DNA of 64,000 nucleotides from an uncultured Caldithrix sp. (lineage in GTDB: Bacteria > Electryoneota > AABM5-125-24 > Hatepunaeales > Hatepunaeaceae). Location of the stretch: NCBI GenBank assembly GCA_964355675.1, contig CAYHEC010000010.1:41160-105159 (forward strand). Reading direction: 5' to 3'. Below are positions 8,871 through 48,988 of the stretch, piece after piece (within the stretch, counting starts at the first letter, position 1; every line of letters starts with the position of its first letter). Below the pieces are notes generated by a model. The model searched no databases, was not told the origin of the DNA, and saw nothing but the letters and a program-made list of their open reading frames with translations. The translations under genes and the position numbers were made by a program.

Positions 8871-9266
8871 TTATGCGCGTGCGATGATAATTATTCCAGC
8901 CAATATGACGAGAATTCCGGTAGCTTTGATCATATTGAAAGACTCATGAAATAATGGTACTGCCCCGGCTGTTACCAAGACAAAAGTCATTCCAACAAGA
9001 ATCGGGTAACTGGTGCTGATCTCAGCAATGGATAAAACTTTAAACCAGACTAGAGAAGCGATTCCATAGCAAATTATCCCTAAAACGAACACAGGTTGTA
9101 AAGCAAGCCGGAGCGCCATTTCCCAGGCTCCCCCAGAGAGTGTAAAGCCGCCGACCTTCAGCAGACCGTAGCGCATGGTCAAGTTTGCGGCCACGGTCAA
9201 TAAGGCGCTTATTACAATCAGGACGAATATCTGAAGAGTCAACCTATTTCGCCCGGTTTCGAACAT
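8871..9266 (-). CDS. Small 4-TM membrane protein, EamA/SMR-like (ArnE/ArnF-like flippase subunit candidate)
   Basis: Track ORF 8871..9344 overlaps the upstream gene by 100 nt; an internal Met (9266) gives a ~130-aa hydrophobic protein; family assignment is by architecture only. Confidence 0.45.
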   Translation of the reverse strand: MFETGRNRLTLQIFVLIVISALLTVAANLTMRYGLLKVGGFTLSGGAWEMALRLALQPVFVLGIICYGIASLVWFKVLSIAEISTSYPILVGMTFVLVTAGAVPLFHESFNMIKATGILVILAGIIIIARA

Positions 9267-9777
9267 CCCCGCGCAAGCGCGCCGGGACGCCAGCGACAAC
9301 TGCATGAGCTTCGACACTTTTTGTGACGACGGCTCCTGCGCCAATCATTGCATTCTCTCCAATAGTAATGCCTGCCAGAATTACTGCTCCAGAGCCAATC
9401 GAAGCGCCTCTTTTAATTCTTGTGGGAATTACAACCCAGTCAGCCTCAGTCTGAAGTTGTCCCTCGGAAGTAGCGCGTGGAAAAAGATCGTTGATGAACA
9501 TAACTCCGTGTCCAACAAAGACATCATCTTCAATAGTTACTCCTTCGCAGACAAACGTGTGTGAGGATATCTTGCAACGGGCTCCGATAAAGGCGTTTTT
9601 TTGAATCTCGACAAAAGCACCAATTTTGGTTTCATCACCAATTTGGCATCCATATAGATTAACCAGCTCGGGTTGAAATATGCGAACGTCCTTTCCGAGT
9701 ATGACGTTGTTACTTACGGGCATAGATTGACTCCATTGGTTTATAATAAAGTGGTGCACATCTTGTGATGCGCTCAA
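9244..9777 (-). CDS. Hexapeptide-repeat (left-handed beta-helix) sugar N-acetyltransferase (WbpD/WlbB-like)
   Basis: Repeated [LIV]-G-x-x-x-x hexapeptides ('IGAGAVVTKSV', 'IGSGAVILAGITIGENAMIGAGAVV'); ~175 aa; adjacent to DegT and Gfo/Idh/MocA genes. Confidence 0.85.
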   Translation of the reverse strand: MSASQDVHHFIINQWSQSMPVSNNVILGKDVRIFQPELVNLYGCQIGDETKIGAFVEIQKNAFIGARCKISSHTFVCEGVTIEDDVFVGHGVMFINDLFPRATSEGQLQTEADWVVIPTRIKRGASIGSGAVILAGITIGENAMIGAGAVVTKSVEAHAVVAGVPARLRGDVRNRAK

Positions 9778-19279: not shown

Positions 19280-19998
19280 TATTTATCTATTCCCAATTTT
19301 TTACGCATTAGGACTTCAACCATTGCCATATCGTTTTCGTCATCGACGCCTACAGAGCGTTCGGGAGGCATTATATAAGGAATAATCTTGTGACCCCAGA
19401 TTGAATTTTCTTCCAGTAGAACATCGCGCCGCGTAAGATAAATTGCACCATTCCGCATATACGCTGGGGGAGAGTAATCTTGTCTTCTTGTGCCCTCTTT
19501 TTCCTCAATACAAAATGGCTGAAGGTATCCTTCTTCGATCTTCTTCATTAACATAGGGTGAACCGAAAATACCTGGACTACGCTAATCACAGAGTCGCCA
19601 TTACCTTGTACACCAAGTTTTATGGCTTCCTCAATATCTTGCACTGTTCGGAAAGGTTCTGTTGGCTGTAAAAGGCATATCCAGTCAAGTCTTTGATTAT
19701 CACGCTGTTCAATGAAATGGGCTGAATGCTGGAGAACGGGTATCATGGGAACTTTATCATGGGACAGCTCTGGTGGCCTAATAAATGGAACAGTTGCCCC
19801 TGCTTCCCTCGATATTTGTGCTATCTCCTGATCATCAGTAGAAACAACAATATCGCAGAAAAGGTGCTTTGCGGCAAGAGCGGTTTCTATGGTATAAACG
19901 ATCATCGGTTTACCGCATACCTCGCGCACATTCTTCCGGTGAACGCCTTTTGATCCACCTCGTGCAGGGATAACTGCCAATATTCTTGGGTCTGCCAT
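19279..19998 (-). CDS. Acylneuraminate cytidylyltransferase family (CMP-nonulosonic acid synthetase, NeuA/LegF/PseF-like)
   Basis: 'ILAVIPARGGSKGVHRKN' signature; canonical ATG at 19998 overlapping the upstream stop (TAATG). Confidence 0.85.
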   Translation of the reverse strand: MADPRILAVIPARGGSKGVHRKNVREVCGKPMIVYTIETALAAKHLFCDIVVSTDDQEIAQISREAGATVPFIRPPELSHDKVPMIPVLQHSAHFIEQRDNQRLDWICLLQPTEPFRTVQDIEEAIKLGVQGNGDSVISVVQVFSVHPMLMKKIEEGYLQPFCIEEKEGTRRQDYSPPAYMRNGAIYLTRRDVLLEENSIWGHKIIPYIMPPERSVGVDDENDMAMVEVLMRKKLGIDK

Positions 19999-21149
19999 TA
20001 GTAGGTAAGTTTTTTGTCGATTTTTAATTCGATTGTAGATAGAATATCAGCGATTCGGTCTCCGGCACAGCCATCGCCGTATAGACTATCTGATGGGTAA
20101 TGTCCATGTGCAAGCTGGTGGGCAATTGCTTCTGTAATCTCTTGATGATCGTATCCGACATCCAACACATTCGAAGCGCGATCCCGACCACCCTGCCGAC
20201 TACCAATATTTACCACAGGAACTCCCAAGAAGGAAGATTCCCGTATTCCAACGCTTGAATTGCCAATTAGACAACGAGCTTGAGTGAGTAGATTCAGAAA
20301 ATCTTCAGGTGGTAAATTCTTATAAAAATATATATTACGAATATCATTTTGCTCGCGGAATAATCTCATCCCTTTAGAGATATGGTCAGAACCTGCGTCA
20401 ACATTGGGCCAGAACCAGAAAGTCGGCAGGTCAAGAGTTTTGACAGCCTTAAGGGTTTCGGTAATTTGAAAGAGCCCCTCATCGACTTCGGTCGTCACCG
20501 GATGTTGCATTACAATCAAATATCCGTTTTCAAGATTGAATGTGTGCCCAACTCCGCCATATTTGACCAAAGGGTTAAAATGCGAAATTGGATTCTTCTT
20601 GACTCGATCAGCCAAATCTATGGATGGACAACCGGTAATGAAAATCGTAGTAGGATCTTCCCCCATTTTTTCCACACGAACTTTGGCTTGAGAGTTAGAA
20701 ACGAAGTGAAAATTTGAGAGTTTGGTTACAGCATGCCGGACTTTCTCATCGATAGAGCCTGTTACTTCCCCGCCTTGAACGTGAGCAACGGTGATATTCA
20801 AATAGGATGCGGCTATAGCCGTTGCGATTGTCTCGTATCGATCTGCAACAGTTACAACAATATCAGGCTTGAGATTATCGAAAATCGTAGCAAGCTCAAC
20901 AACGCCTAATCCGGTTGATTTGGCGGCGGTGACAAGATTCTCACCCTCCAAAACCATATAGACAACGGCGTCGGGTGTAAAGCCATCACTCCGAATAACA
21001 TCGATGACAGGTCCATAACGCTCCAGGAGCGCCGAGGCGCCTACCACCAATTGTAATTTTAAATCCGGATGCAACTGCACAGCCTCCAGAACAGTCTTAA
21101 TACGAGAATAGCTTGGGCGCGCGGTTACAACGATACAGATATTTCGGAT
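19998..21149 (-). CDS. UDP-N-acetylglucosamine 2-epimerase, NeuC/WecB family; 5' end extended beyond the track ORF, candidate ATC start
   Basis: 'HVQGGEVTGSIDEKVRHAVTKLS' core motif; in-frame upstream codons encode 'RNICIVVTARPSYSRIKTVLEAV', which is the conserved NeuC/WecB N-terminus, with no ATG/GTG/TTG between the in-frame TAA TAA (21162-21167) and the GTG at 21080. Confidence 0.8.
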   Translation of the reverse strand: MRNICIVVTARPSYSRIKTVLEAVQLHPDLKLQLVVGASALLERYGPVIDVIRSDGFTPDAVVYMVLEGENLVTAAKSTGLGVVELATIFDNLKPDIVVTVADRYETIATAIAASYLNITVAHVQGGEVTGSIDEKVRHAVTKLSNFHFVSNSQAKVRVEKMGEDPTTIFITGCPSIDLADRVKKNPISHFNPLVKYGGVGHTFNLENGYLIVMQHPVTTEVDEGLFQITETLKAVKTLDLPTFWFWPNVDAGSDHISKGMRLFREQNDIRNIYFYKNLPPEDFLNLLTQARCLIGNSSVGIRESSFLGVPVVNIGSRQGGRDRASNVLDVGYDHQEITEAIAHQLAHGHYPSDSLYGDGCAGDRIADILSTIELKIDKKLTY

Positions 21150-23124: not shown

Positions 23125-24180
23125 TTAATTTAAGCTATCTCTCAAATAACTTTCGAGTGTTTTCTCTATGTCCGGTCGATGCCGTATATTATAGTAATGG
23201 CGCATTTTCAATATCTTCAACTGAAGCGTACTCAAACTACTCAGGATCCGGTAGTGGGTCACAATATCGGCTGAAGCGCCGCTTTGTGCCATGTGGTTTA
23301 TTGCCAATTCAGCAGTCTGGCGAGAGTTCGCTAACAATTCCCATAATGCGATTTTTGCCCAGAACTGTTGACGTTCCCATGAATACTCGGGATTGAGGAT
23401 TTTCCTGATTAGCCACCTGAGCCTTGCTTTCCCTCTTACTTCCTTTATATTCGATACCCATTCCCCAGTTATCGGCTCTTTCTTATAATAGTCAGGAAAG
23501 TACTTTGCCCTTACTCGATTTCCTTCAATCTGTGTAGAGGTCATACTATTTGCTGATAAAGAAACAAGATATAAAGGCTCAGCTATTTCATAACCATTTG
23601 CAACTTGCAATATTCTTATCCAGAGCGGTACATCACCCATAGTAAAATCTGTATCATAACCACCGACGCTCAAAGCTACTTTCCGGTCGAAAATCACTGT
23701 AGCATCACCAAATCGGCGTCTTTTGAAAAATTGTCCAGTTAACATTTCGACACTAAGTTTTCTGGATTTAAATCTATTCTGAAAGACCTCTTCAAAAATA
23801 TGATTAAAAGGGGTTAAATACATAAAGCCAGTACCGACCATTTTATATTCGGGATTTTCTTTTAAGAATGACATTTGTTTTTCGATTCGGAGTGGGAAAC
23901 TAATATCATCAGCATCCATTCGTGCAATCCACTCCGTTGTAGCATTATCCAAACCCCATTGTAAAGCTCCCTGAAATCCAACGGGACCCAATTCAAATAC
24001 TTTTACACGGTGATCTGTTAAGAAAGTGCGGGCAATTTCGGCAGTGTTATCCGATGATCCGTTCTCTAAAACCCATAATTCAAAATCAGAGAAGGTCTGA
24101 TTAAGAATACTCCGAATCGCTGGGCGTATCGTGGATTCGGCATTATGGGCAGGAAGGAAAACTGTTAATGCAGAATTAAT
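23125..24180 (-). CDS. GT2-family glycosyltransferase; conserved N-terminus lies upstream of the track ORF, candidate ATT start
   Basis: Track ORF starts at TTG 23991 inside the domain ('RMDADD' follows); in-frame upstream codons encode 'LTVFLPAHNAESTIRPAIRSILNQTFSDFELWVLENGSSDNTAEI' (GT2 N-terminal motif) back to TAA at 24241-24243, with no ATG/GTG/TTG. Confidence 0.65.
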   Translation of the reverse strand: MNSALTVFLPAHNAESTIRPAIRSILNQTFSDFELWVLENGSSDNTAEIARTFLTDHRVKVFELGPVGFQGALQWGLDNATTEWIARMDADDISFPLRIEKQMSFLKENPEYKMVGTGFMYLTPFNHIFEEVFQNRFKSRKLSVEMLTGQFFKRRRFGDATVIFDRKVALSVGGYDTDFTMGDVPLWIRILQVANGYEIAEPLYLVSLSANSMTSTQIEGNRVRAKYFPDYYKKEPITGEWVSNIKEVRGKARLRWLIRKILNPEYSWERQQFWAKIALWELLANSRQTAELAINHMAQSGASADIVTHYRILSSLSTLQLKILKMRHYYNIRHRPDIEKTLESYLRDSLN

Positions 24181-24250
24181 TTCTAATTCTCTGACCGAAC
24201 GAGGTTCAAATTGAATATTCGAAGAACTGAATATGAAGCCTTAAAATCAA

Positions 24251-25306
24251 TTAATTTCCAAAGACACGAAGCGCTAAACGCTTACAAAAAAGTAAAGTTG
24301 AACGCGGCCATCCAGCAAGCAGAAAATAATACCAACTACTATTAGAATTTGGACTTATTTGGCGAAGCGCCGTTCTCGGATGACAAATTATTGAACGGAT
24401 AAAGTACAAACGAAACTCTGACAATTTGTGAATACTAAGTTTATCTCGCGCACATGCCATATATGCCGCAGCTTTGAACGACTTAATTTCAAAATCCTTA
24501 ATGCCCCATTTTTGCTTATCATTTTCCAATAATTGAGCGATTTTTAAAGTATCTCGTCCGAAGCCAACAACTGATGATGTTTTTGATGCCTGATGGAGTC
24601 GAAATAACGATAAAATCCGTGGTATAAATACGAAGCGCAAATCAGATAATTCTGTTATTAACCAATAATATAAATCCGCAGTCATGTCCATATCTTCGTT
24701 CAAGAATCCGACAGACTCGAAAGTCTGCCGCGTTATGAAAGTTGAAGGTTGGGCAATAGAATTGCCGCCGCGCTTGAGCGCATCAACAATGGGAGTATCT
24801 CGGCCAGAGAGTCCTACTGAGCGTCCCGTTTGGTCTATTATGACCGCTTGCCCATGAATTAAGCCAACATCAGGATTTTCTGCCCAGCAGGTGGCTACAA
24901 GGCGCATCGCCCCCAAACTGTATTGATCATCACTGTTTAGCCAGCCGATAAGATTGCCTGTCGAGATATTCCATCCTCTATTGACAGCAGGCAATTGTCC
25001 ATTGTCTTTCTCACTCACCCACTGGGTTAACCAAGGTTCGTATTTTCTGATAATATCGACGCTGTCGTCGTTGCTACCTCCATCCATAACAAAATACTCA
25101 AGATCTGGATATCCTTGTAATAAGACGGATCGAATCGTTTCTTCGATAAATTCGCCCTGATTATAGGATGGAGTACTGACACTGATTCTTGGCCAGTTAC
25201 GTCCATCAGGCATCGTGTCAGGTAACTGAGCGCTTTCCTCGTTCCATGGCCAGCCGTTTTTTCCCGTGGGCGGGGATGGCAACTCACTCAATGTAGGGCA
25301 ACGCAA
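24251..25306 (-). CDS. GT2-family glycosyltransferase
   Basis: 'ISVSTPSYNQGEFIEETIRSVLLQGYPDLEYFVMDGGSND' GT-A signature; true start probably internal Met. Confidence 0.75.
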   Translation of the reverse strand: MRCPTLSELPSPPTGKNGWPWNEESAQLPDTMPDGRNWPRISVSTPSYNQGEFIEETIRSVLLQGYPDLEYFVMDGGSNDDSVDIIRKYEPWLTQWVSEKDNGQLPAVNRGWNISTGNLIGWLNSDDQYSLGAMRLVATCWAENPDVGLIHGQAVIIDQTGRSVGLSGRDTPIVDALKRGGNSIAQPSTFITRQTFESVGFLNEDMDMTADLYYWLITELSDLRFVFIPRILSLFRLHQASKTSSVVGFGRDTLKIAQLLENDKQKWGIKDFEIKSFKAAAYMACARDKLSIHKLSEFRLYFIRSIICHPRTALRQISPNSNSSWYYFLLAGWPRSTLLFCKRLALRVFGN

Positions 25307-39088: not shown

Positions 39089-39970
39089 TTAGTTTTCCAC
39101 ATCATAAGTACTCAGTATATTTTCTAATTCTGATAGAAGTTGTCGTAATGAATCGAGAGAGTCATAACGAAGACTTATGCGGTTTTTAAAGATGTGGACA
39201 GAATCATTAGCTTTGGCGAATTGTTTTAGTTCGGGCAGGACATCCCATTTCTCGTTTGGGTTCCTCTTTTGTTTGCGACGGATAATTTCGTCATCGATCA
39301 ATTGCTTGAATTGCTCCAAGTCAAGGCTGGCGCCTCTCAAGATCAGCTTTGCCCTAAGGCGCTCAATAGGAATCTTCGATAATGCCAGCGCTTTCTTCAA
39401 TGAAAGGGTCTTGTCGGCGATTGCCTTTTTCAGGTCCGCTGGTAGAAGCAAGAGTGATAAGCGATCATTCACAAAAGACGCAGACTTACCGATTTTGGTG
39501 GCAATATCCCGGTAGGTTAATCCAAGTTGTTCGATTAATTGCTTGATGGCTCTGGCTTCCTCCATCGGTTCCAAGTCAGAGCGTTGCAAGTTCTCTATCA
39601 GGGAATATAGAAGGAAATCTTCTTGTGACAGATCTAACACAATACAAGGAACAGCTGTCAATTCTGCGCGCTTGGCCGCTTCCAATCTACGGTGACCAGC
39701 AATCAGAATATAGTGCTTGCGACCTTTGCGAATAACCAGCAAAGGCTCAAGGACCCCAACGTCTTTTATTGAGGCGGTGAGCTCATCAAGCGAGCGTTGG
39801 TCGTTCTCAACCCGTAGTGGAAATGAATTGGGGTAAAGAAATCCAATCGGCATCAGTTGGGCGTTCTGAAGAGGTTCAGGTTTGTTCGATGGAAGAGTTT
39901 GACCGAACGCTTCATGAAGTTCAGGCGCCTGCAGACCTATTGCAGGATTGTTATCAGGGTCGTAAGGCAA
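39089..39970 (-). CDS. ParB/Spo0J-family protein (ParB N-terminal CTP-binding domain + HTH), orphan
   Basis: 'LEPLLVIRKGRKHYILIAGHRRLEAAKRA' (GxRR box) and HTH-like 'LTYRDIATKIGKSASFVNDRLSLL'; no ParA gene in the window. Confidence 0.8.
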   Translation of the reverse strand: MPYDPDNNPAIGLQAPELHEAFGQTLPSNKPEPLQNAQLMPIGFLYPNSFPLRVENDQRSLDELTASIKDVGVLEPLLVIRKGRKHYILIAGHRRLEAAKRAELTAVPCIVLDLSQEDFLLYSLIENLQRSDLEPMEEARAIKQLIEQLGLTYRDIATKIGKSASFVNDRLSLLLLPADLKKAIADKTLSLKKALALSKIPIERLRAKLILRGASLDLEQFKQLIDDEIIRRKQKRNPNEKWDVLPELKQFAKANDSVHIFKNRISLRYDSLDSLRQLLSELENILSTYDVEN

Positions 39971-40418: not shown

Positions 40419-43400
40419 ATGAAAACGATCACTGGAATGCTACTCGCAGTAGTTCTTGTTTTGGTGGTGCCGCAGTTCGGTTTCGCCAGAATAATCAACG
40501 TCCCCGAAGAAAATCAGACTATTCAGGCGGCTATTAATACTGCAGAAGCAGGAGATACCGTTCTGGTTCAGCCGGGAATATACGGTGAAAATATTCTTTT
40601 TAACGGAATCGATATTGTCGTTGGCAGTCTGCTCCTGACGACCGGCGATCATGCTTATATCGACTCGACAATTATTGATGGAAACGCCAGCGCATCGGTT
40701 GTTAGAATCCGTACTGGTGAAACTGATGCTACTGTATTAACAGGCTTTACGATTATTAACGGCAGAGCAAATTATGGCGGCGGAGTTTATATTAACGCCG
40801 CCAGCCCGACACTCGATCATCTCATTATAACTCGAAATCACGCGATCAGAGACGGCGGCGGGATTTACTGCACGCATAACGCCAATCCCATTTTTAAACA
40901 TTTGACCGTGTCAGCCGATACTGCCGAACGGAGTAACGGCGGTCTGTTTACCTTTGATAATTCTTCAGCCACTATAATCAACTCCATCTTCAGGAGTAAC
41001 ATCCCTATCGGAACTCCTGCAGGACAAACGATTACCTTTTCCAACATTCAAAATGGTTACGCCGGACAGGGCAATATAAACAGTAATCCCCTCTTCGTCG
41101 ATCCGGGAAATGGTAACTTCCATCTGCAAGAAAATTCGCCGTGTATCGACGCTGGCGATCCGAATTCGCCTCCCGATCAAGATGAGTCTCGCGCTGATAT
41201 AGGGGCTTTTTATTTTGACCAGACTCCCTATCCGCGTATAGTTGCCTCGCATGACTCATTGGACTTCGGAGGCGTTCTTCCCGGTGCAGAACTTGCCAGA
41301 ATAATTACAATTATTAATCAAGGCGACGCCGACCTAATCGTTCAGCATCCCACGACCGACGGCGAACCTTTCCATGCCGATCCGGAGGATTGGGAGTCCG
41401 TTACTCTCGAACCGTTAGATACGCTCGAAGCCGAAGTTTTTTTCGCTCCAACCGAAATCGGGGATTTCGTGGGGCATTTCATCATCGAATCAAATGACCC
41501 TGATAACGAGACTCTTGATATAATACTCATCGGAAGTGGTGCTGTCCCGATCATAGCCGTAGCTTCTGATTCGCTTGATTTTGGTGTTGTTTTAATTGAT
41601 AATAGCTCCGAACTGCCTCTCGTCGTGAGCAATAATGGGGGAGCCGATCTGACAATAAGCGACGCCAGCGTTCAAGGAGATAACTACTCGATTGATTTTG
41701 GTGGTGAGTTTACCGTTCATCCCGATGAATCTGCTGAGATAATTGTCACATTTTCCCCGTCAGAAGCAGGCGGCTTCGATGGGGAAGTCACGATCACTTC
41801 TGATGATCCAGAGAATGCCGAAATGACTGTGGCCCTGGTCGGAGTCGGCAGAGAGCGAACCATCACAGAATTAGGGGCAATCGATACGCCGGGACAAGCG
41901 CTGGGAGTTGCTATCGTTGGATCTCTTGCACTCTTGTCCGACGGTCAGGGCGGTCTTCGAATAATCGATTATTCCGATCCTGCTAATCCTGCCGAAATTA
42001 GCTCCATCGAAACGCCGGGCAACGCCAGAGATATTGTTGTAGTAAATGGTTTAGCTTTTATCGCTGATGAGGAAAGCGGGCTGAGGATGATTGATTTCTC
42101 CGATCCCGAGCATCCTGCCGAAGTCTGGACGTTCGACACGCCCGGTCGGGCTTATGGAGTTGCGGTTGTTGGTTCGTTTGCTTATGTAGCCGATTACGAG
42201 GGAGGGCTCCGTATCGTAGATATTTCTGACCCCGAATCTCCCCATGAAGTAGGGGCATCCGAAACGAACGGCAATGCTCGAGCGGTAGCCATACTCGGTG
42301 ATTATGCGTACATAGCCGCGGAAGAGGGTGGCTTGGAAATAATCGATATTTCTGATCCGGAAAGTCCCCACCGAATTGGTTCTGTCGAAACTCCGGGGAG
42401 TGCCTATGGAATTATAGCTCGGGGAGGTTATGTTTATGTGGCCGATGGAGATAATGGTCTTTGTGTGATCGATGTTTCCACACCTGCTAACCCATCAGTA
42501 ATTACCAGCTACAACACGCCGGGGATTGCGTCCAACGTCACATCGACAGGTGAATTGATCTACGTTGCTGATTCGACCACTGGTATTCAAGTGATTAATA
42601 TAGCTGATCTTGAAAATATTGAAACGGTTGGTACATTCAACACGCATGCCGAAGCTTGTGATATTGCCATTCTTGGCGACTACTGTTTCGTCGCCGATGG
42701 AGAAAGCGGACTTCATGTATTGGACGTCTCGGAGATTGCTCAATACCCGGTTGTTTCCGTCACCCCAGAGGCGCTGAGGTTTCAGCGTACCGTTACCGGC
42801 TATAGTTCAGATATCACGTTGACAATCCATAATCGCGGTAATTGTACGTTGAATATTTTCGCGGTAGCGGTCGAGGGAAATTACTTCGAAAGTGAAATCG
42901 CAAATCCGGTGGCGATTGAGCCAATGGAGAGCTATGATTTGGCAGTTACTTTCACTCCGGAAGAAGCCGGCGATTTTGCTGGAACGCTAACAATTATTTC
43001 GGATGATCCATACCAACCTCACAAGCAAATCTCGTTGTCGGGAAGCGGGCTGGTCTTTGATCTTATCGAAGAGACCGGTTCACTCTTAGAGTTTTTCGCC
43101 GGAACTGAAGATGGATGCGCGTATGACAACTGGGTAAGCCATATCTCCGAGGGGGTTGCCCGAGACGGTTACAACGAATACTGTCCTCCGGAACTTGACC
43201 GGCAGACGAACGGCTTCGGCTCATTTACGATAATCGATAGTCTCGAAAATCCGGACGAAATAACCGCGAGTTGGTATGAGATATTTTCCAGCCTGTATCA
43301 TGGGGACATCGAAACCGCACGCGTAACCCTTGCTCTATCAAGTTTCAGCGATAAGTATCAGATAGTTCGTCTCGAAGATGGTGAGAAGAACTATGTAATC

Positions 43401-46400
43401 TTGAGAGAAAACCTGAATAATGAATACTTTGATGACAATGGTACTCAGGACGCCGCCGATGACGTTCGCGGGTCGTTCGACTTGGGATGGGGGTTGTTTG
43501 TCTTCGATCTTGACCCTTTCACGCCGGATGTTATCATCGAAGTACCTCACCCGGAAGACGATTTTCTTGCTCCTCCATCTGGGATCGATGCATTTTTTAC
43601 GATTGGCGCGAGAGCGCTCTTCGTAGCAGGAGCCGGTCGTGAAGTCAGCTGGACCGGTGAGGGAAACTATACAAATCTGAAGTCATTTTCAGATCCTACA
43701 CGCATTGAGGGTAGTGCTTTCAATCAAGCACATAAAGCGGGGGTGGACTTGATTGATCAGGAATTTGTCATCCAGATTCACAGTTACGACAGCGAATCGC
43801 ATCCCACTTTGATGCCCGCCGAACTTTCCACACGGCTCGACTACTATCCTAATCGCCCAGTTCTGGATTTTGAGAATCACTTCGATATCGTAAGTCTCAC
43901 GCCGGAGATTCCGGTTCCCGCCAATTCAACTGGACATGAAAACCACGATTCGCTACGGGTCGATGATTTCTATGCTGTCTGGTATGATATCGACGTCTTA
44001 GGTACTTATCGCTATCACAATCGCTTGGATATATCGAACGACGTGGTGATGTTCGCATCGAGCATGAATGAACAGATGCTTTACTCGATGGCTGGCCATG
44101 ATACTCTGCGGGACGATGAAAAATGGCTTCATGTCGAACAGGACGAATTTCCAAATGTCATTACTGAGGATATTCTAAACTATTATAGCGCTGGCGGAGC
44201 TATGACCTACCATAATTTCAGCCCAGCAGTTCAGTTTTACCGCCCGGTGTACACGGCGGTAAGAAACTATTACCATCATAGAACCCTGCATAACGTTCCT
44301 GATGATTATCAGACAATCCAGGCCGCTGTTGACGCTTCAGTCAGTGGAGACACAGTGCTGGTTCAGCCCGGGACTTACGTTGAAACCGTCAACTTCAAGG
44401 GCAAAGACATCACGGTGGGAAGCCTCTTCCTGAACACCGGAGACCAAGCCTACATAGAATCAACTATCATAGATGGCAACCGCAACGGCAGTGTGGTGAG
44501 ATTTGACAGTGGTGAGACCAATAATGCCTTGTTGACCGGATTCACTATTCGAAACGGTTCCGGTTCCATCGATGCTGAAAATGACATCAGCGGCGGGGGG
44601 ATACATTGCCACAACGCATCGCCCCGTCTGAATTATCTCAAAATTGTTAACAATAATGCCTGGTATGCCGCGGGTATTTATTGCGAATTAGGTTCCGATG
44701 CGATTATCGATCATTGTCTGATTACTAACAACGTCGCCGCTATTGCTGGTGGTGGTATGGATTGCTATGCCGCCAGCCCCACCATGAGCAACTGTACCAT
44801 TGCGGATAATCAGGCAATCAGGGGAGGCGGGCTCTACCTATTCGATGGCTGTAATCTGACTATTACGAACAGTATCTTCTGGAATAACGCTCCGCAAGAA
44901 CTTCTTTATTCACTTAGCGGAGTTCCCGATACGGTTATATTTCAGTACACTGACATTATGGGTGGTGAGCGTCGAGTCAACACTCACCGTAACGGCGCTG
45001 TCATCTGGGGAGAAGGCAACATCGATCAGGATCCCCGATTTGTTGCCCCTGAGGAGGGTGACTACTCTCTAAGCGAAGGAAGCCCCTGCCAAGACGCCGG
45101 AAATCCTGGCGATACACGTGATCCCGATGACACGTGGATCGATATGGGAGCGCTCTATTCTCCTTATGAGCGAGACAATCAGCCGCGCATGGTTGTTAAT
45201 TCTAATAGATTTGGCTTCGGAACTGTCGAAGTCGGGCAGAACCTTCACTTGATATTGCAGATTCACAACACGGGCTATGCCGCTCTTACGGTTTCAGAGA
45301 TGAGGCTATCAGGAGATCATCCCGACGACTTCAGCGCAGACTTCGGACAGGAGTTAACGGTCGATCCCGGTCAGATTCGCAACGTCACATTGACATTTGC
45401 CCCCGGCGATGCAGGTCGTCGAGAAGCCAATATGGTCGCCACAAGTAATGATCCGGTGCAGGCAGAGACTCAAATGGCACTTGGTGGATTCGGATTAATC
45501 CGTGGAGATCGTCATTTATGGATTGTTCCGGATGACCTTGAAAGAATTCAGGAAGCTATTGATATATCAGTCGATGGCGATACTATTCTCGTTAGATCGG
45601 GTGTTTACCAGGAGAATATCGATTTTTCGGGCAAAGCGCTTGTAGTAGGTAGCTTCTTCCTGACCGATCGTGACCCGGAATTGATCACAAATACCGTTAT
45701 CCGAGGCGACAACAGCGGCGGAGTGGTTTCTTTCATCAGCGGAGAGGATACGAACTCTGTATTATCAGGATTCACAATAACGGGTGGGCAAGATGGAGTT
45801 TACAGCGCGTCTTCAAATCCAACTATAAGTTATTGTGTTATAAATAGTAACGCGGCAGTGAACACCGGCGGCGCGGGATTGTACTGCCGCGGTGGCGCTT
45901 CGCCAAGCCTTCTTAACTGTACTTTGGTTGATAATTCAGCTCGATGGGGCGGTGGTATGTACATTCGAGAAGGAAGTGGCGTCACCTTGACCAACTGTAT
46001 TGTTTGGGCAAATGATCCAAACACAGTTTACTCATCGGGTAACGGCGTAAGAAATCGACTTTCGGTGGATCACTCGAATATTGAGGGTGATCGACAGGGG
46101 GTTGTTACCAACAATAATTGTCAGGTCACCTGGGGCGAAGGCAATATCAACACAGATCCTCTGTTTGTTGATTTGGGTAATGGAGACTTCCGTCTGGGAG
46201 CCAACAGTCCCTGCGTCGATGCAGGCAATGCCAATTCGCCGCTCGATGCCGACAGCACCCGCGCCGATCTTGGCGCTCTTTACTATGACCATCGGACGCC
46301 TCGTATCGCTGTGGAGCCTGCCGAGCTCGATTTTGAACTGACAAGAATAGGCGAATTGTCAGAGAAAGAGATAGTTATCTTTAACAGGGGTGTTGCTGAC

Positions 46401-48908
46401 CTGACCGTTACAAATCTCCCCATAGAAGGCGAATACTTCTCTTGCGATTTCAGGCAGGAACTCGTGATCCACCCGGATGACTCTACCGTTGTCACTGTAG
46501 CCTTCATACCTGAGGTGCAAGGCGATTTCGAAGCTGTTCTGACGATTTTGTCCGATGACCCTAACAATTGGGCGATTCCTGTTCGTCTTCATGGTGTTAG
46601 TGGGAGCCAACCACCGGAAATCATCAGCGAGATAGGAGATCTGTCCTACCCAGAAGACTCTGGTCCCTGGACAATCGCCGATCTCGATACGGTCTTCAAT
46701 GATCCGGAGGGAGATAACCTGACTTTCAGCGCTATAGCGCCTGACCCGTTGACGGTGTTAATTGGGAACGAAGATCATGTCTTGGTTCTTGAAGCGCCCG
46801 CCAACTTTAACACCGAAGGACTCGAAATTCAAGTTACCGCATCGGATAGTATTGGCGGAAGACGGGTGATGATAATAAGGACTTTACGCGGAACCGCTAA
46901 TCAAATGGTACGGCTTACAGATTTAGGCTCAGTACAGCCGAAAGATGTCGGCAGTACCAATGAAGGAATTAATTCCTCATCGACCCCATTCAAAATTCAC
47001 CAGATCAGTCGCGATGGATCAGCAGAGGATATATTTACGCTTGTTATAGAACCAATCAACGATGAACCAGTGTGGGTGAATTACCCGCAAGAGATCATCC
47101 GAGTCGAGAGTGGTGGCGTTATCGAGTTTGTAGTAGTAACGGAAGACGTCGATGGTGATCGGTTGAATTTGAGGATGATTGGCAACGATCTCCCGGATGA
47201 AGTCCAGTTTGTCGTAACTGAAAATGGCCGAGGTCGCTTAAATTGGCAAACCACAATTGAAACGGTTGGTCATTTTGAAGTAGTCCTGTCGGTTTCTGAC
47301 GGTGCGGTTTCGTCGGAGATCACTGTAAACGTGATTGTCATCCACCCGCCTCAGCACTTCACGGAATTTGACCAGACAGAGCAAAGCCACAATTTGCATG
47401 TAACAGGCGTCTCAATCAACGGTGACCCGGTCTCTGCTGGCTGGGAAGTCGGCGTCTTTACGCCTGCCGGTGTTTTGGCAGGTGGGGACGCTTGGACGGA
47501 AGTTGAGATGGATCTGCCAGTCTGGGGCGCTGATGACAACCATCAGGATTATTTCCACGAAGGCGAGACAATGAGTCTCAAGTTGTGGGACTACCAAGCT
47601 GATGCGGAGTGGGATGGTGGGGCAGTGGTCGAAGAAGGTGAAATGAATTGGGTGAATAACGGCAATACCGTTCTTACTGTCGAAAGCAACAGCCTAAAAA
47701 CATTGGAAGTAGCCATGCGTCTGGGCTGGAAACTGATTTCGGTCAACGTGATCCCATCCGATCAGGATTTCTGGGCTGGCGACCCCGGTCCTGAAATTGT
47801 TCCGATGATGTCCCAGCTCCGCCGTCCGAACAACGGAGCACATCATCTAATTCTGATGAAGGATGAGCGTGGGCGGTTCTATATACCGGAACGTGGTTTC
47901 GGCAATATGTCTTATTGGAATCTCGCAGAGAGCTATCAGGTTCGTATCGACTCCGCTATGTCGGCATTCTGGACAGGAACGCCGATCAATCCACAAGCCG
48001 ATGTTCCGATTACCCGTGGTTGGAATTATATTGCTTACTTTCCGGATTATCAACTTTCTGCGTACAGCAGAGATGGTTGCTATGTGTTATCGCCGATCAT
48101 CGATCACGTTCTCCTAGCCAAGGACGGCCTTGGTAACTTTATGATCCCGTCACGCGGATTCTTCAGCAATATGCCGCCATGGCGGGAAGGACAGGGCTAC
48201 CAGATCAATGTCGATCAAGATGTTGTCCTGAATTACCCACAAGCACAGAATCAGGCCGCGGCATTGTCAGTCGATCCTGAGTCTGTCAAGGGTCGTTGGG
48301 CCGATGTACCTTCGACCGGTGCAAACATGAGCGTGTTGGTCACCAAGGTATCGGGCGTCGATCTTTCGACTTCCGACCAGGTTGCCGCGTTCAGCCCGTC
48401 CGGTCTTATGGTTGGCGTAGGCCGAGTAATCGATGGACAGATTGGTATTGCAGTCTGGGGCGACGACGCCTCAACCCAAGCGGTGGACGGCCTGAAAGAC
48501 GGCGAAGCGTTCACGCTGAAGTTGTGGAATGCCGCTGAAGACGTAGTTGTCGATCTTAGTTCGCGGGTTATCGAAGGCGACCGCCTTGTCTATTTGACAG
48601 ACGGTTTCACGGTAATCGACGCGTCTGTAACGACAGCACTTCCGACCGAGTTCTATCTCAGTCAGAACTACCCGAACCCGTTCAATGCAGTGACTCGTGT
48701 AGCCTTCGGCTTGCCGGAAGCATCACGTGTGACGGTTCGCGTGTTCGATCTGTCTGGACGTGAAGTATCGACGTTGGTGAGTGGTGAGCTTCAGGCTGGC
48801 CATCACAGTGTCGTGTTGGATGGCGAATCGATGGTATCGGGCGTTTACATCGTCAAGATGGAAGCGACGAACTTCAGCGCCGTTCGTAAAGTAATGCTCG
48901 TGAAGTAA
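40419..48908 (+). CDS. Giant secreted multidomain surface protein: signal peptide, three parallel beta-helix (Pmp/pectin-lyase-like) modules, Ig-like domains, LVIVD beta-propeller, T9SS C-terminal sorting domain
   Basis: 2829-aa uninterrupted ORF; signal peptide 'MKTITGMLLAVVLVLVVPQFGFA'; module 'VP..QTIQAA...GDTVLVQPG.Y.E...F.G.DI.VGS' occurs three times; GGG[IV]Y / F..N repeats; C-terminal 'NYPNPFNAVTRVAFGLPEASRVTVRVFDLSGREV...SGVYIVKMEATNFSAVRKVMLVK'. Confidence 0.85.
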   Translation: MKTITGMLLAVVLVLVVPQFGFARIINVPEENQTIQAAINTAEAGDTVLVQPGIYGENILFNGIDIVVGSLLLTTGDHAYIDSTIIDGNASASVVRIRTGETDATVLTGFTIINGRANYGGGVYINAASPTLDHLIITRNHAIRDGGGIYCTHNANPIFKHLTVSADTAERSNGGLFTFDNSSATIINSIFRSNIPIGTPAGQTITFSNIQNGYAGQGNINSNPLFVDPGNGNFHLQENSPCIDAGDPNSPPDQDESRADIGAFYFDQTPYPRIVASHDSLDFGGVLPGAELARIITIINQGDADLIVQHPTTDGEPFHADPEDWESVTLEPLDTLEAEVFFAPTEIGDFVGHFIIESNDPDNETLDIILIGSGAVPIIAVASDSLDFGVVLIDNSSELPLVVSNNGGADLTISDASVQGDNYSIDFGGEFTVHPDESAEIIVTFSPSEAGGFDGEVTITSDDPENAEMTVALVGVGRERTITELGAIDTPGQALGVAIVGSLALLSDGQGGLRIIDYSDPANPAEISSIETPGNARDIVVVNGLAFIADEESGLRMIDFSDPEHPAEVWTFDTPGRAYGVAVVGSFAYVADYEGGLRIVDISDPESPHEVGASETNGNARAVAILGDYAYIAAEEGGLEIIDISDPESPHRIGSVETPGSAYGIIARGGYVYVADGDNGLCVIDVSTPANPSVITSYNTPGIASNVTSTGELIYVADSTTGIQVINIADLENIETVGTFNTHAEACDIAILGDYCFVADGESGLHVLDVSEIAQYPVVSVTPEALRFQRTVTGYSSDITLTIHNRGNCTLNIFAVAVEGNYFESEIANPVAIEPMESYDLAVTFTPEEAGDFAGTLTIISDDPYQPHKQISLSGSGLVFDLIEETGSLLEFFAGTEDGCAYDNWVSHISEGVARDGYNEYCPPELDRQTNGFGSFTIIDSLENPDEITASWYEIFSSLYHGDIETARVTLALSSFSDKYQIVRLEDGEKNYVILRENLNNEYFDDNGTQDAADDVRGSFDLGWGLFVFDLDPFTPDVIIEVPHPEDDFLAPPSGIDAFFTIGARALFVAGAGREVSWTGEGNYTNLKSFSDPTRIEGSAFNQAHKAGVDLIDQEFVIQIHSYDSESHPTLMPAELSTRLDYYPNRPVLDFENHFDIVSLTPEIPVPANSTGHENHDSLRVDDFYAVWYDIDVLGTYRYHNRLDISNDVVMFASSMNEQMLYSMAGHDTLRDDEKWLHVEQDEFPNVITEDILNYYSAGGAMTYHNFSPAVQFYRPVYTAVRNYYHHRTLHNVPDDYQTIQAAVDASVSGDTVLVQPGTYVETVNFKGKDITVGSLFLNTGDQAYIESTIIDGNRNGSVVRFDSGETNNALLTGFTIRNGSGSIDAENDISGGGIHCHNASPRLNYLKIVNNNAWYAAGIYCELGSDAIIDHCLITNNVAAIAGGGMDCYAASPTMSNCTIADNQAIRGGGLYLFDGCNLTITNSIFWNNAPQELLYSLSGVPDTVIFQYTDIMGGERRVNTHRNGAVIWGEGNIDQDPRFVAPEEGDYSLSEGSPCQDAGNPGDTRDPDDTWIDMGALYSPYERDNQPRMVVNSNRFGFGTVEVGQNLHLILQIHNTGYAALTVSEMRLSGDHPDDFSADFGQELTVDPGQIRNVTLTFAPGDAGRREANMVATSNDPVQAETQMALGGFGLIRGDRHLWIVPDDLERIQEAIDISVDGDTILVRSGVYQENIDFSGKALVVGSFFLTDRDPELITNTVIRGDNSGGVVSFISGEDTNSVLSGFTITGGQDGVYSASSNPTISYCVINSNAAVNTGGAGLYCRGGASPSLLNCTLVDNSARWGGGMYIREGSGVTLTNCIVWANDPNTVYSSGNGVRNRLSVDHSNIEGDRQGVVTNNNCQVTWGEGNINTDPLFVDLGNGDFRLGANSPCVDAGNANSPLDADSTRADLGALYYDHRTPRIAVEPAELDFELTRIGELSEKEIVIFNRGVADLTVTNLPIEGEYFSCDFRQELVIHPDDSTVVTVAFIPEVQGDFEAVLTILSDDPNNWAIPVRLHGVSGSQPPEIISEIGDLSYPEDSGPWTIADLDTVFNDPEGDNLTFSAIAPDPLTVLIGNEDHVLVLEAPANFNTEGLEIQVTASDSIGGRRVMIIRTLRGTANQMVRLTDLGSVQPKDVGSTNEGINSSSTPFKIHQISRDGSAEDIFTLVIEPINDEPVWVNYPQEIIRVESGGVIEFVVVTEDVDGDRLNLRMIGNDLPDEVQFVVTENGRGRLNWQTTIETVGHFEVVLSVSDGAVSSEITVNVIVIHPPQHFTEFDQTEQSHNLHVTGVSINGDPVSAGWEVGVFTPAGVLAGGDAWTEVEMDLPVWGADDNHQDYFHEGETMSLKLWDYQADAEWDGGAVVEEGEMNWVNNGNTVLTVESNSLKTLEVAMRLGWKLISVNVIPSDQDFWAGDPGPEIVPMMSQLRRPNNGAHHLILMKDERGRFYIPERGFGNMSYWNLAESYQVRIDSAMSAFWTGTPINPQADVPITRGWNYIAYFPDYQLSAYSRDGCYVLSPIIDHVLLAKDGLGNFMIPSRGFFSNMPPWREGQGYQINVDQDVVLNYPQAQNQAAALSVDPESVKGRWADVPSTGANMSVLVTKVSGVDLSTSDQVAAFSPSGLMVGVGRVIDGQIGIAVWGDDASTQAVDGLKDGEAFTLKLWNAAEDVVVDLSSRVIEGDRLVYLTDGFTVIDASVTTALPTEFYLSQNYPNPFNAVTRVAFGLPEASRVTVRVFDLSGREVSTLVSGELQAGHHSVVLDGESMVSGVYIVKMEATNFSAVRKVMLVK
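41880..42735 (+). repeat. Seven tandem LVIVD-type repeats (beta-propeller) within the giant protein
   Basis: Recurring ~40-aa unit 'TPG.A.GVA..G..AY.AD...GL.I.D.SDP..P' seen seven times. Confidence 0.7.
48651..48905 (+). other. T9SS (Por secretion system) C-terminal sorting domain of the giant protein
   Basis: Final ~85 aa begin 'FYLSQNYPNPFNAVT' and end 'KVMLVK', matching the conserved type-A CTD pattern. Confidence 0.8.
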
Positions 48909-48929
48909 AGAAGTAGTAGCTCAAGCAGT

Positions 48930-48951
48930 GGGGCGGATTGCAATCCGCCCC
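48930..48951. terminator. GC-rich hairpin between convergent genes (candidate bidirectional terminator)
   Basis: GGGGCGGAT-TGCA-ATCCGCCCC, 9-bp perfect stem with 4-nt loop, 22 nt after the giant gene stop; no clean U-tract. Confidence 0.4.
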
Positions 48952-48988
48952 TACGGCAATTCAATATTCTATCGAATTCAACTTAATA

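Follow-up and report, generated by a model that had tools for sequence, protein, structure and literature searches.

On the minus strand of a 64-kb stretch of DNA from an uncultured Caldithrix sp. (contig CAYHEC010000010.1; the whole stretch, in which all positions given below are counted, is referred to as the window), a gene for a glycosyltransferase of family 2 (GT2) was found to encode the conserved N-terminus of its product upstream of the first canonical start codon of its frame, with a near-cognate ATT, located at 24180-24178, as the candidate start codon. Real but weak initiation at this AUU is considered to be the best reading of the data, to which we assign a probability of roughly 60%. 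Two further genes of the same locus appear to follow the same pattern, i.e., an AUH codon (AUA, AUC or AUU) is located where a canonical start would be expected.

The GT2 reading frame and its N-terminus

A stop-to-stop scan of the window showed that the minus-strand frame of the GT2 gene runs without interruption from 24240 as far as TAA 23127-23125, representing 371 codons, and that it is bounded on its 5' side by the in-frame stops TAA 24243-24241 and TGA 24249-24247. As had been claimed in a sequence-only reading of this DNA, the first ATG, GTG or TTG of the frame is TTG 23991-23989, which by computation is codon 84 and is preceded by 249 nucleotides (nt) that are open in the same frame. 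Among the 83 codons that separate TAA 24243 from TTG 23991 there is no ATG, GTG or TTG, also in agreement with that reading, and no CTG either, while the upstream peptide that it had quoted was reproduced exactly by translation. This 83-codon lead before a first canonical start is the longest in the window. ATG, GTG and TTG constitute 5.6% of the internal codons of window genes, and the probability that 62 coding codons are free of them is ~0.03, which is unusual, not extreme; judged from sequence comparison, it is homology rather than openness alone that sets the upstream stretch beyond chance. The features of the gene are as follows, where extended numbering counts from the first codon of the open frame at 24240, so that the ATT is residue 21:

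23125..24180, minus strand: proposed full-length GT2 glycosyltransferase coding sequence with ATT start, 351 amino acids (aa) and stop TAA 23127-23125 (open reading frame (ORF), PF00535, alignments, AlphaFold, Foldseek)
24178..24180, minus strand: candidate near-cognate initiation codon ATT, extended codon 21 (alignment with homologue Met)
23992..24177, minus strand: N-terminal coding stretch without canonical start, comprising β1 TVFLPAHN, α1, β2 ELWVLENGSSD, α2 and β3 VKVFE
23989..23991, minus strand: first canonical start-type codon TTG, in the invariant family column 'ELG'; L84 in extended numbering, residue 64 of 351 aa
23905..23916, minus strand: DxD motif D-A-D-D, predicted to bind metal and nucleotide-sugar (invariant columns D109, D111 and D112 of a 15-sequence alignment)
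24181..24250, minus strand: spacer of 70 nt that separates the ATT from TAA 24253-24251, with which the upstream GT2 gene ends (sequence)

The proposal that the upstream 249 nt encode the nucleotide-binding N-terminus of a GT2 enzyme is supported by Pfam, family alignment, AlphaFold and solved GT2 structures alike. The Pfam profile PF00535 matches the extended ORF with 96.4 bits (cut-off 23.3) over profile positions 1-118, the first of which corresponds to extended residue 26, while the match to the TTG-initiated ORF is limited to 34 bits and to profile positions 65-118. The closest full-length GT2 homologues are 40-50% identical, with some being 57-59% identical over two thirds of the protein, and alignments of 15 (A2) and 59 (A3) family members were analyzed. 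The 15-sequence alignment contains 20 invariant columns 5' of the TTG, including T26, P30, A31, H32, N33, E54, L55, W56, L58, E59, S62, D64, V81 and F82, and the TTG itself corresponds to an invariant Leu, L84. In the 59-sequence alignment, 84 columns are conserved at 90% or more, of which 28 are located within the 63 residues before the TTG, and the window protein retains every one of these 28. Across its entire length the protein deviates at six of the 84 conserved columns, compared to a family mean of 3.3 (standard deviation 3.0), and 12 of 58 homologues equal or exceed this number. The gene represents a single open frame without internal stop or frameshift and, from β1 as far as YRHRPD at the C-terminus, is colinear with its homologues.

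The AlphaFold model of the 351-aa protein, built on the 59-sequence alignment, exhibits a mean predicted local distance difference test score of 88.5, reaching 94-98 for the first 130 residues, and a predicted template modelling score of 0.87. Upstream of the TTG it predicts strands at residues 5-11, 33-39 and 59-63 and helices at residues 18-26 and 46-51, i.e., the β1-α1-β2-α2-β3 order of a GT-A fold. A Foldseek search with this model returned WrtF, SpsA, K4CP and 6P61 with a probability of 1.00 and E-values of 1e-13 to 1e-15, and a phmmer search against PDB sequences matched SpsA, K4CP and heparosan synthase to residues 5-106/129, with E-values down to 1e-14. Furthermore, the DxD motif D-A-D-D (23916-23905) and the Asp of ENGSSD (D64 in extended numbering) both occupy invariant family columns. 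The gene is therefore assigned, on sequence, motif and predicted fold, to glycosyltransferase family 2 with a GT-A fold.

Public gene calls for this protein comprise 288 aa (P0121, from TTG 23991) or 275 aa (P0001, from a later TTG). It is very improbable that either short product is the real, functional protein and that the upstream frame is untranslated, even though the gene callers of NCBI, ENA and Logan picked these starts and TTG is a legitimate start codon. A TTG-initiated product would be devoid of β1-β3 and of the ENGSxD Asp and, according to the model, could not be a working GT-A enzyme, being unable to form the GT-A sheet because β1-β3 are encoded upstream of the TTG. Moreover, the TTG encodes a Leu that is invariant in the family, the frame preceding it is the best-conserved part of the protein, and comparably truncated proteins in the homologue set examined are fragments only. 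The alignments indicate that the Leu specified by TTG 23991 is most likely internal, at position 64 of the 351 aa, and that both public calls are too short at their N-terminus.

Position of the start codon and reliability of the DNA sequence

The Met residues with which homologues begin were found at columns 17-21 of the 15-sequence alignment, and none further upstream. ATT 24180 corresponds to column 21, at which P0005 and P0088 carry their Met, and it is the sole near-cognate codon within this five-codon zone of homologue starts, which upholds the claim that it is situated at the expected Met. Among 104 homologues bearing the TVxxPAHN motif, 89% possess 4-9 residues before its Thr (mode 7), and eight of them possess exactly five, which is the lead that ATT 24180 would provide; the corresponding leads from ATT 24216 and ATA 24234 would be 17 and 23 residues, respectively. 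As the codons at leads of 6-9 residues (GAA, TTA, GAA and AGA) are not near-cognate, and the leads from the other AUH codons are too long, ATT 24180-24178 is, on this alignment evidence, the only plausible start for a family-typical N-terminus, giving 351 aa.

Initiation at one of these other in-frame AUH codons of the spacer, i.e., ATA 24234-24232 or ATT 24216-24214, would result in an N-terminal extension of 12-18 residues. Both codons are located 3' of the last in-frame stop, the context of the ATA is the least structured of the three (minimum free energy (MFE) -3.7), and this ATA follows the stop of the upstream GT2 gene by just 17 nt, so that termination and re-initiation are conceivable, the more so since re-initiation does not require a Shine-Dalgarno (SD) element and decreases with distance (PMC2268962). 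Use of either codon is nonetheless judged improbable: leads of at least 17 residues are present in only ~5% of the 104 homologues, and the extension FIFSSSNIQFEPRSVRELE is without counterpart among the aligned homologues.

Over the 351 nt around the GT2 start, the NCBI/ENA contig and the Logan assemblies of runs ERR3856787 and ERR3856788 show 100% identity, and both Logan assemblies also contain the 288-aa TTG product. Other overlapping contigs (ENA ERZ4201063/4 and, from a separate project, Logan SRR24858484) match the window at 100%, although none spans the GT2 start. Since assemblies made independently from two or more sequencing runs are identical, an assembly error at this position is very unlikely, and the sequencing correction restoring an ATG, which the sequence-only reading had envisaged, did not materialize, as ATT is present in all assemblies that cover the start.

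It is accordingly extremely improbable that a sequencing or assembly error masks an ATG, or that a frameshift or read-through event fuses the gene to the upstream GT2 gene. The contig is indeed metagenome-assembled, and the upstream GT2 gene, on the same strand, ends just 70 nt away. However, the start region is identical in three assemblies from two runs, the remaining overlapping contigs, including SRR24858484 (the GT2 start being outside that contig), are the same as the window throughout, and the homologues are stand-alone proteins, each with its own Met. A fusion was also considered from the arrangement of the frames and rejected: the TAA of the upstream gene at 24253 is located in a different frame, and is followed by TGA 24249 and TAA 24243 in the GT2 frame. 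Inspection of the sequence did not reveal a slippery site.

Further genes of the same pattern and the surrounding locus

Two other genes of the window were shown to be devoid of a canonical start at their conserved N-terminus:

19998..21149 (frame to 21161), minus strand: NeuC-like hydrolysing UDP-GlcNAc 2-epimerase, with ATC 21149-21147 at the family Met position; 383 aa
60753..61415 (frame to 61511), minus strand: NeuD/PglD-like hexapeptide acyltransferase, with ATT 61415-61413 at the start of the PglD_N domain

In the NeuC-like gene, only AGG TAT TTT ACT ATC separates the stops TAA TAA (21167-21162) from the segment R-N-I-C-I-V-V-T-A-R-P-S-Y-S-R-I-K, and the first canonical start, GTG 21080, falls 3' of the conserved TARPSYSRIK motif. 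Homologues in 15 loci start 1-5 residues before R-K-[IV]-C (13 with ATG, one with GTG and one with TTG), and in 48 of the best 120 homologues a Met immediately precedes R-K-[IV]-C, which is the site of ATC 21149 in the window. The length from this ATC, 383 aa, is the most frequent one in the family, the public call P0245 being truncated to 358 aa. The ATC is preceded by AAGG at -13 to -10, and a gene started there would have 25 nt in common with the 3' end of the dehydrogenase-like gene that precedes it.

For the NeuD-like gene, positions 1-78 of the PglD_N profile correspond to extended residues 32-115, with ATT 61415 being residue 33; canonical start codons begin only 26 codons inside the ATT, with GTG 61337 at residue 59. 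On this basis, ATT 61415-61413 is likely to be the start of the gene. Its leader is 68% A and unstructured (MFE -1.8), and the DNA of this region is identical in an overlapping contig (L025). As the gene heads its operon, coupling to a preceding gene is not available to it. It is preceded by a 16-codon upstream ORF from ATG 61530 to TAG 61482-61480 (MKKRVLVFPCDREISM), and by other out-of-frame mini-ORFs.

Genes without a canonical start at a conserved N-terminus thus number three of the ~44 genes in the window, or of ~55 when its flanks are included. Comparison with Pfam domain boundaries showed that all other window genes with TTG or GTG as first start, or with a long lead, fit canonical starts, and no further such gene was found in ~16 kb flanking the window. 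According to our own calculation, the Poisson probability of three cases in 55 genes is ~0.003 even at a tenfold higher base rate, so that this number would be unexpected, and the recurrence strengthens the reading that these are functional weak starts.

The locus is a polysaccharide cluster of more than 60 kb with a G+C content of 44% in the window, encoding a Wzm/Wzt ABC transporter, a Wzy_C protein, many GT1, GT2, GT4 and GT9 glycosyltransferases and a GDP-mannose dehydratase (GMD). It includes a nonulosonic-acid module, composed of genes for NeuC-like, 2-hydroxyacid dehydrogenase-like and NeuB proteins, a CTP_transf_3 cytidylyltransferase and an asparagine-synthase-like amidotransferase. 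The GT2 gene adjoins the NeuB, NeuC, CMP-transferase and GMD genes, and its upstream neighbour is another GT2 gene.

Several other features of the locus were observed. A ParB/Spo0J-like gene (39089-39970, minus strand) is located beside the polysaccharide clusters, and is similarly placed in three contigs of distant relatives (L030, L032 and L034), which suggests a conserved linkage of ParB with polysaccharide genes rather than a chromosomal partition locus; its best named relative, at 49% identity, is from a metagenome-assembled genome of the Calditrichaeota. At 8871-9777 (minus strand), a hexapeptide acetyltransferase gene (9244-9777) overlaps by ~100 nt with an ORF of 157 aa (8871-9344) that is without a Pfam match and for which gene callers differ, some reporting an 82-aa ORF and others no gene; the ORF could represent a small, uncharacterized gene or non-coding sequence. 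A giant ORF of 2829 aa (40419-48908, plus strand) is without assigned function, and several large proteins encoded nearby possess Por_Secre_tail C-termini of the type IX secretion system. Approximately 300 nt around the end of this giant gene (48651-48954) are 80% identical to a near-3' stretch of a large gene just outside the window (neighbouring-contig regions L023 20389-20688 and L027 12742-14910). Finally, a gene for SelA (selenocysteine synthase) is located ~4 kb past the right end of the window (L027 15473-16915), and its presence makes it probable that selenocysteine is inserted at some TGA codons in the source organism.

Probable weak initiation, possible recent start loss and comparison with known systems

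If weak initiation applies, GT2 translation would start at ATT 24180-24178, read by the initiator fMet-tRNA, and would yield the intact 351-aa enzyme. Because AUU initiates poorly, at ~1-3% of AUG in E. coli, and is sensitive to initiation factor 3 (IF3), synthesis would be expected to proceed at a low level, which is possibly IF3-responsive. Ribosomes could be recruited de novo through a weak GAG at -11 to -9 or, alternatively, could re-initiate at the ATT after translating the upstream GT2 gene, whose stop precedes the ATT by 70 nt, or an out-of-frame mini-ORF of eight codons (TTG 24209 to TAG 24185-24183, minus strand: TTG AAC CTC GTT CGG TCA GAG AAT TAG), which ends 2 nt before it; the arrangement of the sequence makes such re-initiation possible. 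The three AUH starts of the locus, i.e., the GT2 ATT, the NeuC-like ATC and the NeuD-like ATT, suggest that weak starts may be tolerated or used to throttle expression.

A weaker, though by no means negligible, case can be made for a recent pseudogene, in which an ancestral ATG was converted to ATT by a G to T change and the gene is no longer usefully translated, its ORF being intact only for lack of time. In that event the NeuC-like and NeuD-like genes would have decayed independently, as parts of a polysaccharide locus that is not required. Loci for surface polysaccharides frequently vary and can often be dispensed with, which counts in favour of such decay. On the other hand, no conserved position has been lost from the N-terminal 63 residues of the GT2 protein, its overall deviation is within the family range, and the adjacent pathway genes for NeuB, CMP-transferase and GMD are intact. 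The nature of the lesions also bears on this alternative: from the genetic code, random decay of a 1-kb gene should involve ~20 times more stop-creating substitutions than start losses, with indels in addition. Frameshifted or nonsense-interrupted genes were not seen among the ~44-55 genes in ORF lists and Pfam scans, which were not exhaustive. As all three lesions are start-only and lead to near-cognates that still initiate, they would fit working, hypomorphic starts much better than random decay.

Several observations weigh against weak initiation, and those on AUH efficiency, ribosome-binding context and conservation also count in favour of a pseudogene. In E. coli, initiation from AUA, AUC or AUU reaches 1-2% (0.02-3%) of the AUG level (bioRxiv 10.1101/063800), and the ribosome-binding context of ATT 24180 is weak, with the GAG as its sole SD-like element. 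The sequence-only reading had proposed that the upstream sequence be inspected for an initiation signal, and this GAG is what emerged, whereas a promoter, a strong SD or a significant RNA structure did not. Specifically, no sigma-70-like promoter was found at the spacer in a promoter and terminator scan that was uninformative, its only other result being one weak terminator-like hairpin inside the upstream GT2 gene; the RNA structure of the spacer (24181..24250) is not significant (z = 0.32); and Rfam families and tRNAs were not found across the 64-kb window. A weak, A/U-rich hairpin of 7 bp (24190-24184 / 24178-24172) places the ATT at the 3' edge of its loop. Local folding at the ATT amounts to -5.3 kcal/mol, compared to -5.5 ± 3.5 for true starts and -7.0 ± 3.1 for internal sites, and folding energy thus fails to separate it from either. 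It should be noted that SD usage is weak among window genes in general, an AAGG/AGGA-type element at -15 to -5 being present in ~40% of clear ATG genes and A/T-rich leaders in the others. In a large share of window genes, the first codon at which translation could start is a TTG.

The comparative evidence points in the same direction. Distant full-length GT2 homologues have a called Met start (Val in a few) and none shares the ATT, so that, as homologues outside the source organism use canonical starts, the ATT and ATC codons appear to be derived. A search of 5.8 billion proteins returned no GT2 orthologue above ~59% identity, a value reached over two thirds of the protein; apart from the truncated calls of the organism itself, all hits were homologues at or below 59%. 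A scan of GTDB representative genomes with the adjacent NeuB as query likewise reached at most 59% identity, the source genome being absent from that scan, and JGI metagenomes, scanned for the exact DNA pattern at the GT2 start with the start codon wildcarded, gave no match. All assemblies of the source organism are identical at the sites covered and no strain variation was seen, and conservation of the ATT is thus not demonstrable in these data. The contigs carrying ParB homologues (Calditrichaeota-like, 49-57% identity; L030, L032 and L034), a small and distant sample, contain no convincing genes without a canonical start, and this sequence survey lends no support to a lineage-wide habit of AUH starts. 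Lastly, the loss of an ancestral ATG through one G-to-T substitution would leave the same sequence in an expressed gene as in a just-dead one.

Weak but real initiation is still preferred, with very little probability being left to a truncated functional product, an artefact and a fusion when taken together. A more far-reaching proposal is that the three AUH genes represent a coordinated translational throttle on the synthesis of surface polysaccharide and nonulosonic acid in an SD-poor bacterium of the FCB group, either as a small regulon that responds to IF3 and growth state, or as a symptom of lineage-wide relaxed start discrimination. This is speculative and rather unlikely; if relaxed discrimination were true, a percent-level fraction of the genes of this lineage would be annotated too short.

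What is new here is the annotation correction for the GT2 gene, together with three AUH-start candidates clustered in one locus, while the proposed mechanism is already known from infC and pcnB. The public calls for the GT2, NeuC-like and NeuD-like enzymes are truncated and without essential N-terminal elements, and function prediction or cloning based on them would fail. Starts at AUH codons are regarded as extremely rare, representing at most ~0.05% of annotated bacterial genes, and are best understood for infC. Three of them in one locus (~7% of window genes) would provide a test bed for weak starts that keep biosynthetic enzymes at a low level or tie them to IF3, and the locus could also illustrate start-site choice in bacteria with weak SD usage. 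Should the three genes have only just died, they would provide an example of gene decay that begins with the loss of the start codon.

With regard to enzymes of solved structure, the window GT2 has the GT-A Rossmann-like fold in common with SpsA of B. subtilis (1QG8/1H7L), the fucosyltransferase WrtF (9OMH-9OMN), the K4 chondroitin polymerase of E. coli (2Z86) and the Leptospira glycosyltransferase 6P61. It also shares with them a β-α-β core for nucleotide binding at the N-terminus, as well as the DxD motif, at a sequence identity of just 15-26%. The window GT2 family differs in the addition of a helical C-terminal domain of ~100 residues with a Y-R-H-R-P-D-[WL]-E end, which is without counterpart in the solved matches. 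This domain (23125-23430, minus strand, in the window; homologues P0002-P0120) has no Pfam annotation.

With regard to start codons, 99.95% of the annotated starts of well-annotated model bacteria are ATG, GTG or TTG (bioRxiv 10.1101/063800). According to work cited in PMC7797042 and PMC13009471, infC and pcnB of E. coli start at AUU, a weak start that limits translation and renders it sensitive to IF3. For infC of Flavobacterium johnsoniae, the annotation of which was short by 57 conserved codons, mass spectrometry and mutagenesis of GFP fusions proved that ATA is the start (PMC7797042), and in S. aureus the non-canonical starts of cvfC1 (AUU) and ccpN (AUA) reduce initiation yield (PMC13009471). 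A literature search for ATT or ATC starts in glycosyltransferase or polysaccharide genes yielded nothing relevant.

The window GT2 resembles E. coli infC and pcnB in being a conserved gene whose only possible initiation codon appears to be a near-cognate AUU. The infC AUU is conserved in many bacteria and forms part of an autoregulatory loop. In contrast, the window gene encodes a glycosyltransferase, its ATT is absent from known homologues, and its regulation is here a proposal. The F. johnsoniae infC is similar in that conserved residues are encoded far upstream of the annotated canonical start, with an AUH codon at the start, and it originates from the FCB group, to which the source of the window may belong, perhaps as a Calditrichota-like member, in view of neighbouring Por_Secre_tail proteins, the Calditrichaeota-like ParB and the G+C content of 44%, although the confidence in this placement is low; it differs in being experimentally verified and in encoding IF3 itself, whereas the window case is computational and concerns a biosynthetic enzyme. 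The S. aureus genes cvfC1 and ccpN are, like the window GT2, ordinary genes other than infC with AUH starts, although their sites are conserved between species and possess a strong extended SD, compared to the minimal GAG of the window gene. On its sequence, the GT2 gene would thus be placed in the AUH-start class, as conserved coding sequence is located upstream, a canonical start is absent, and a near-cognate codon occupies the position of the homologue Met.

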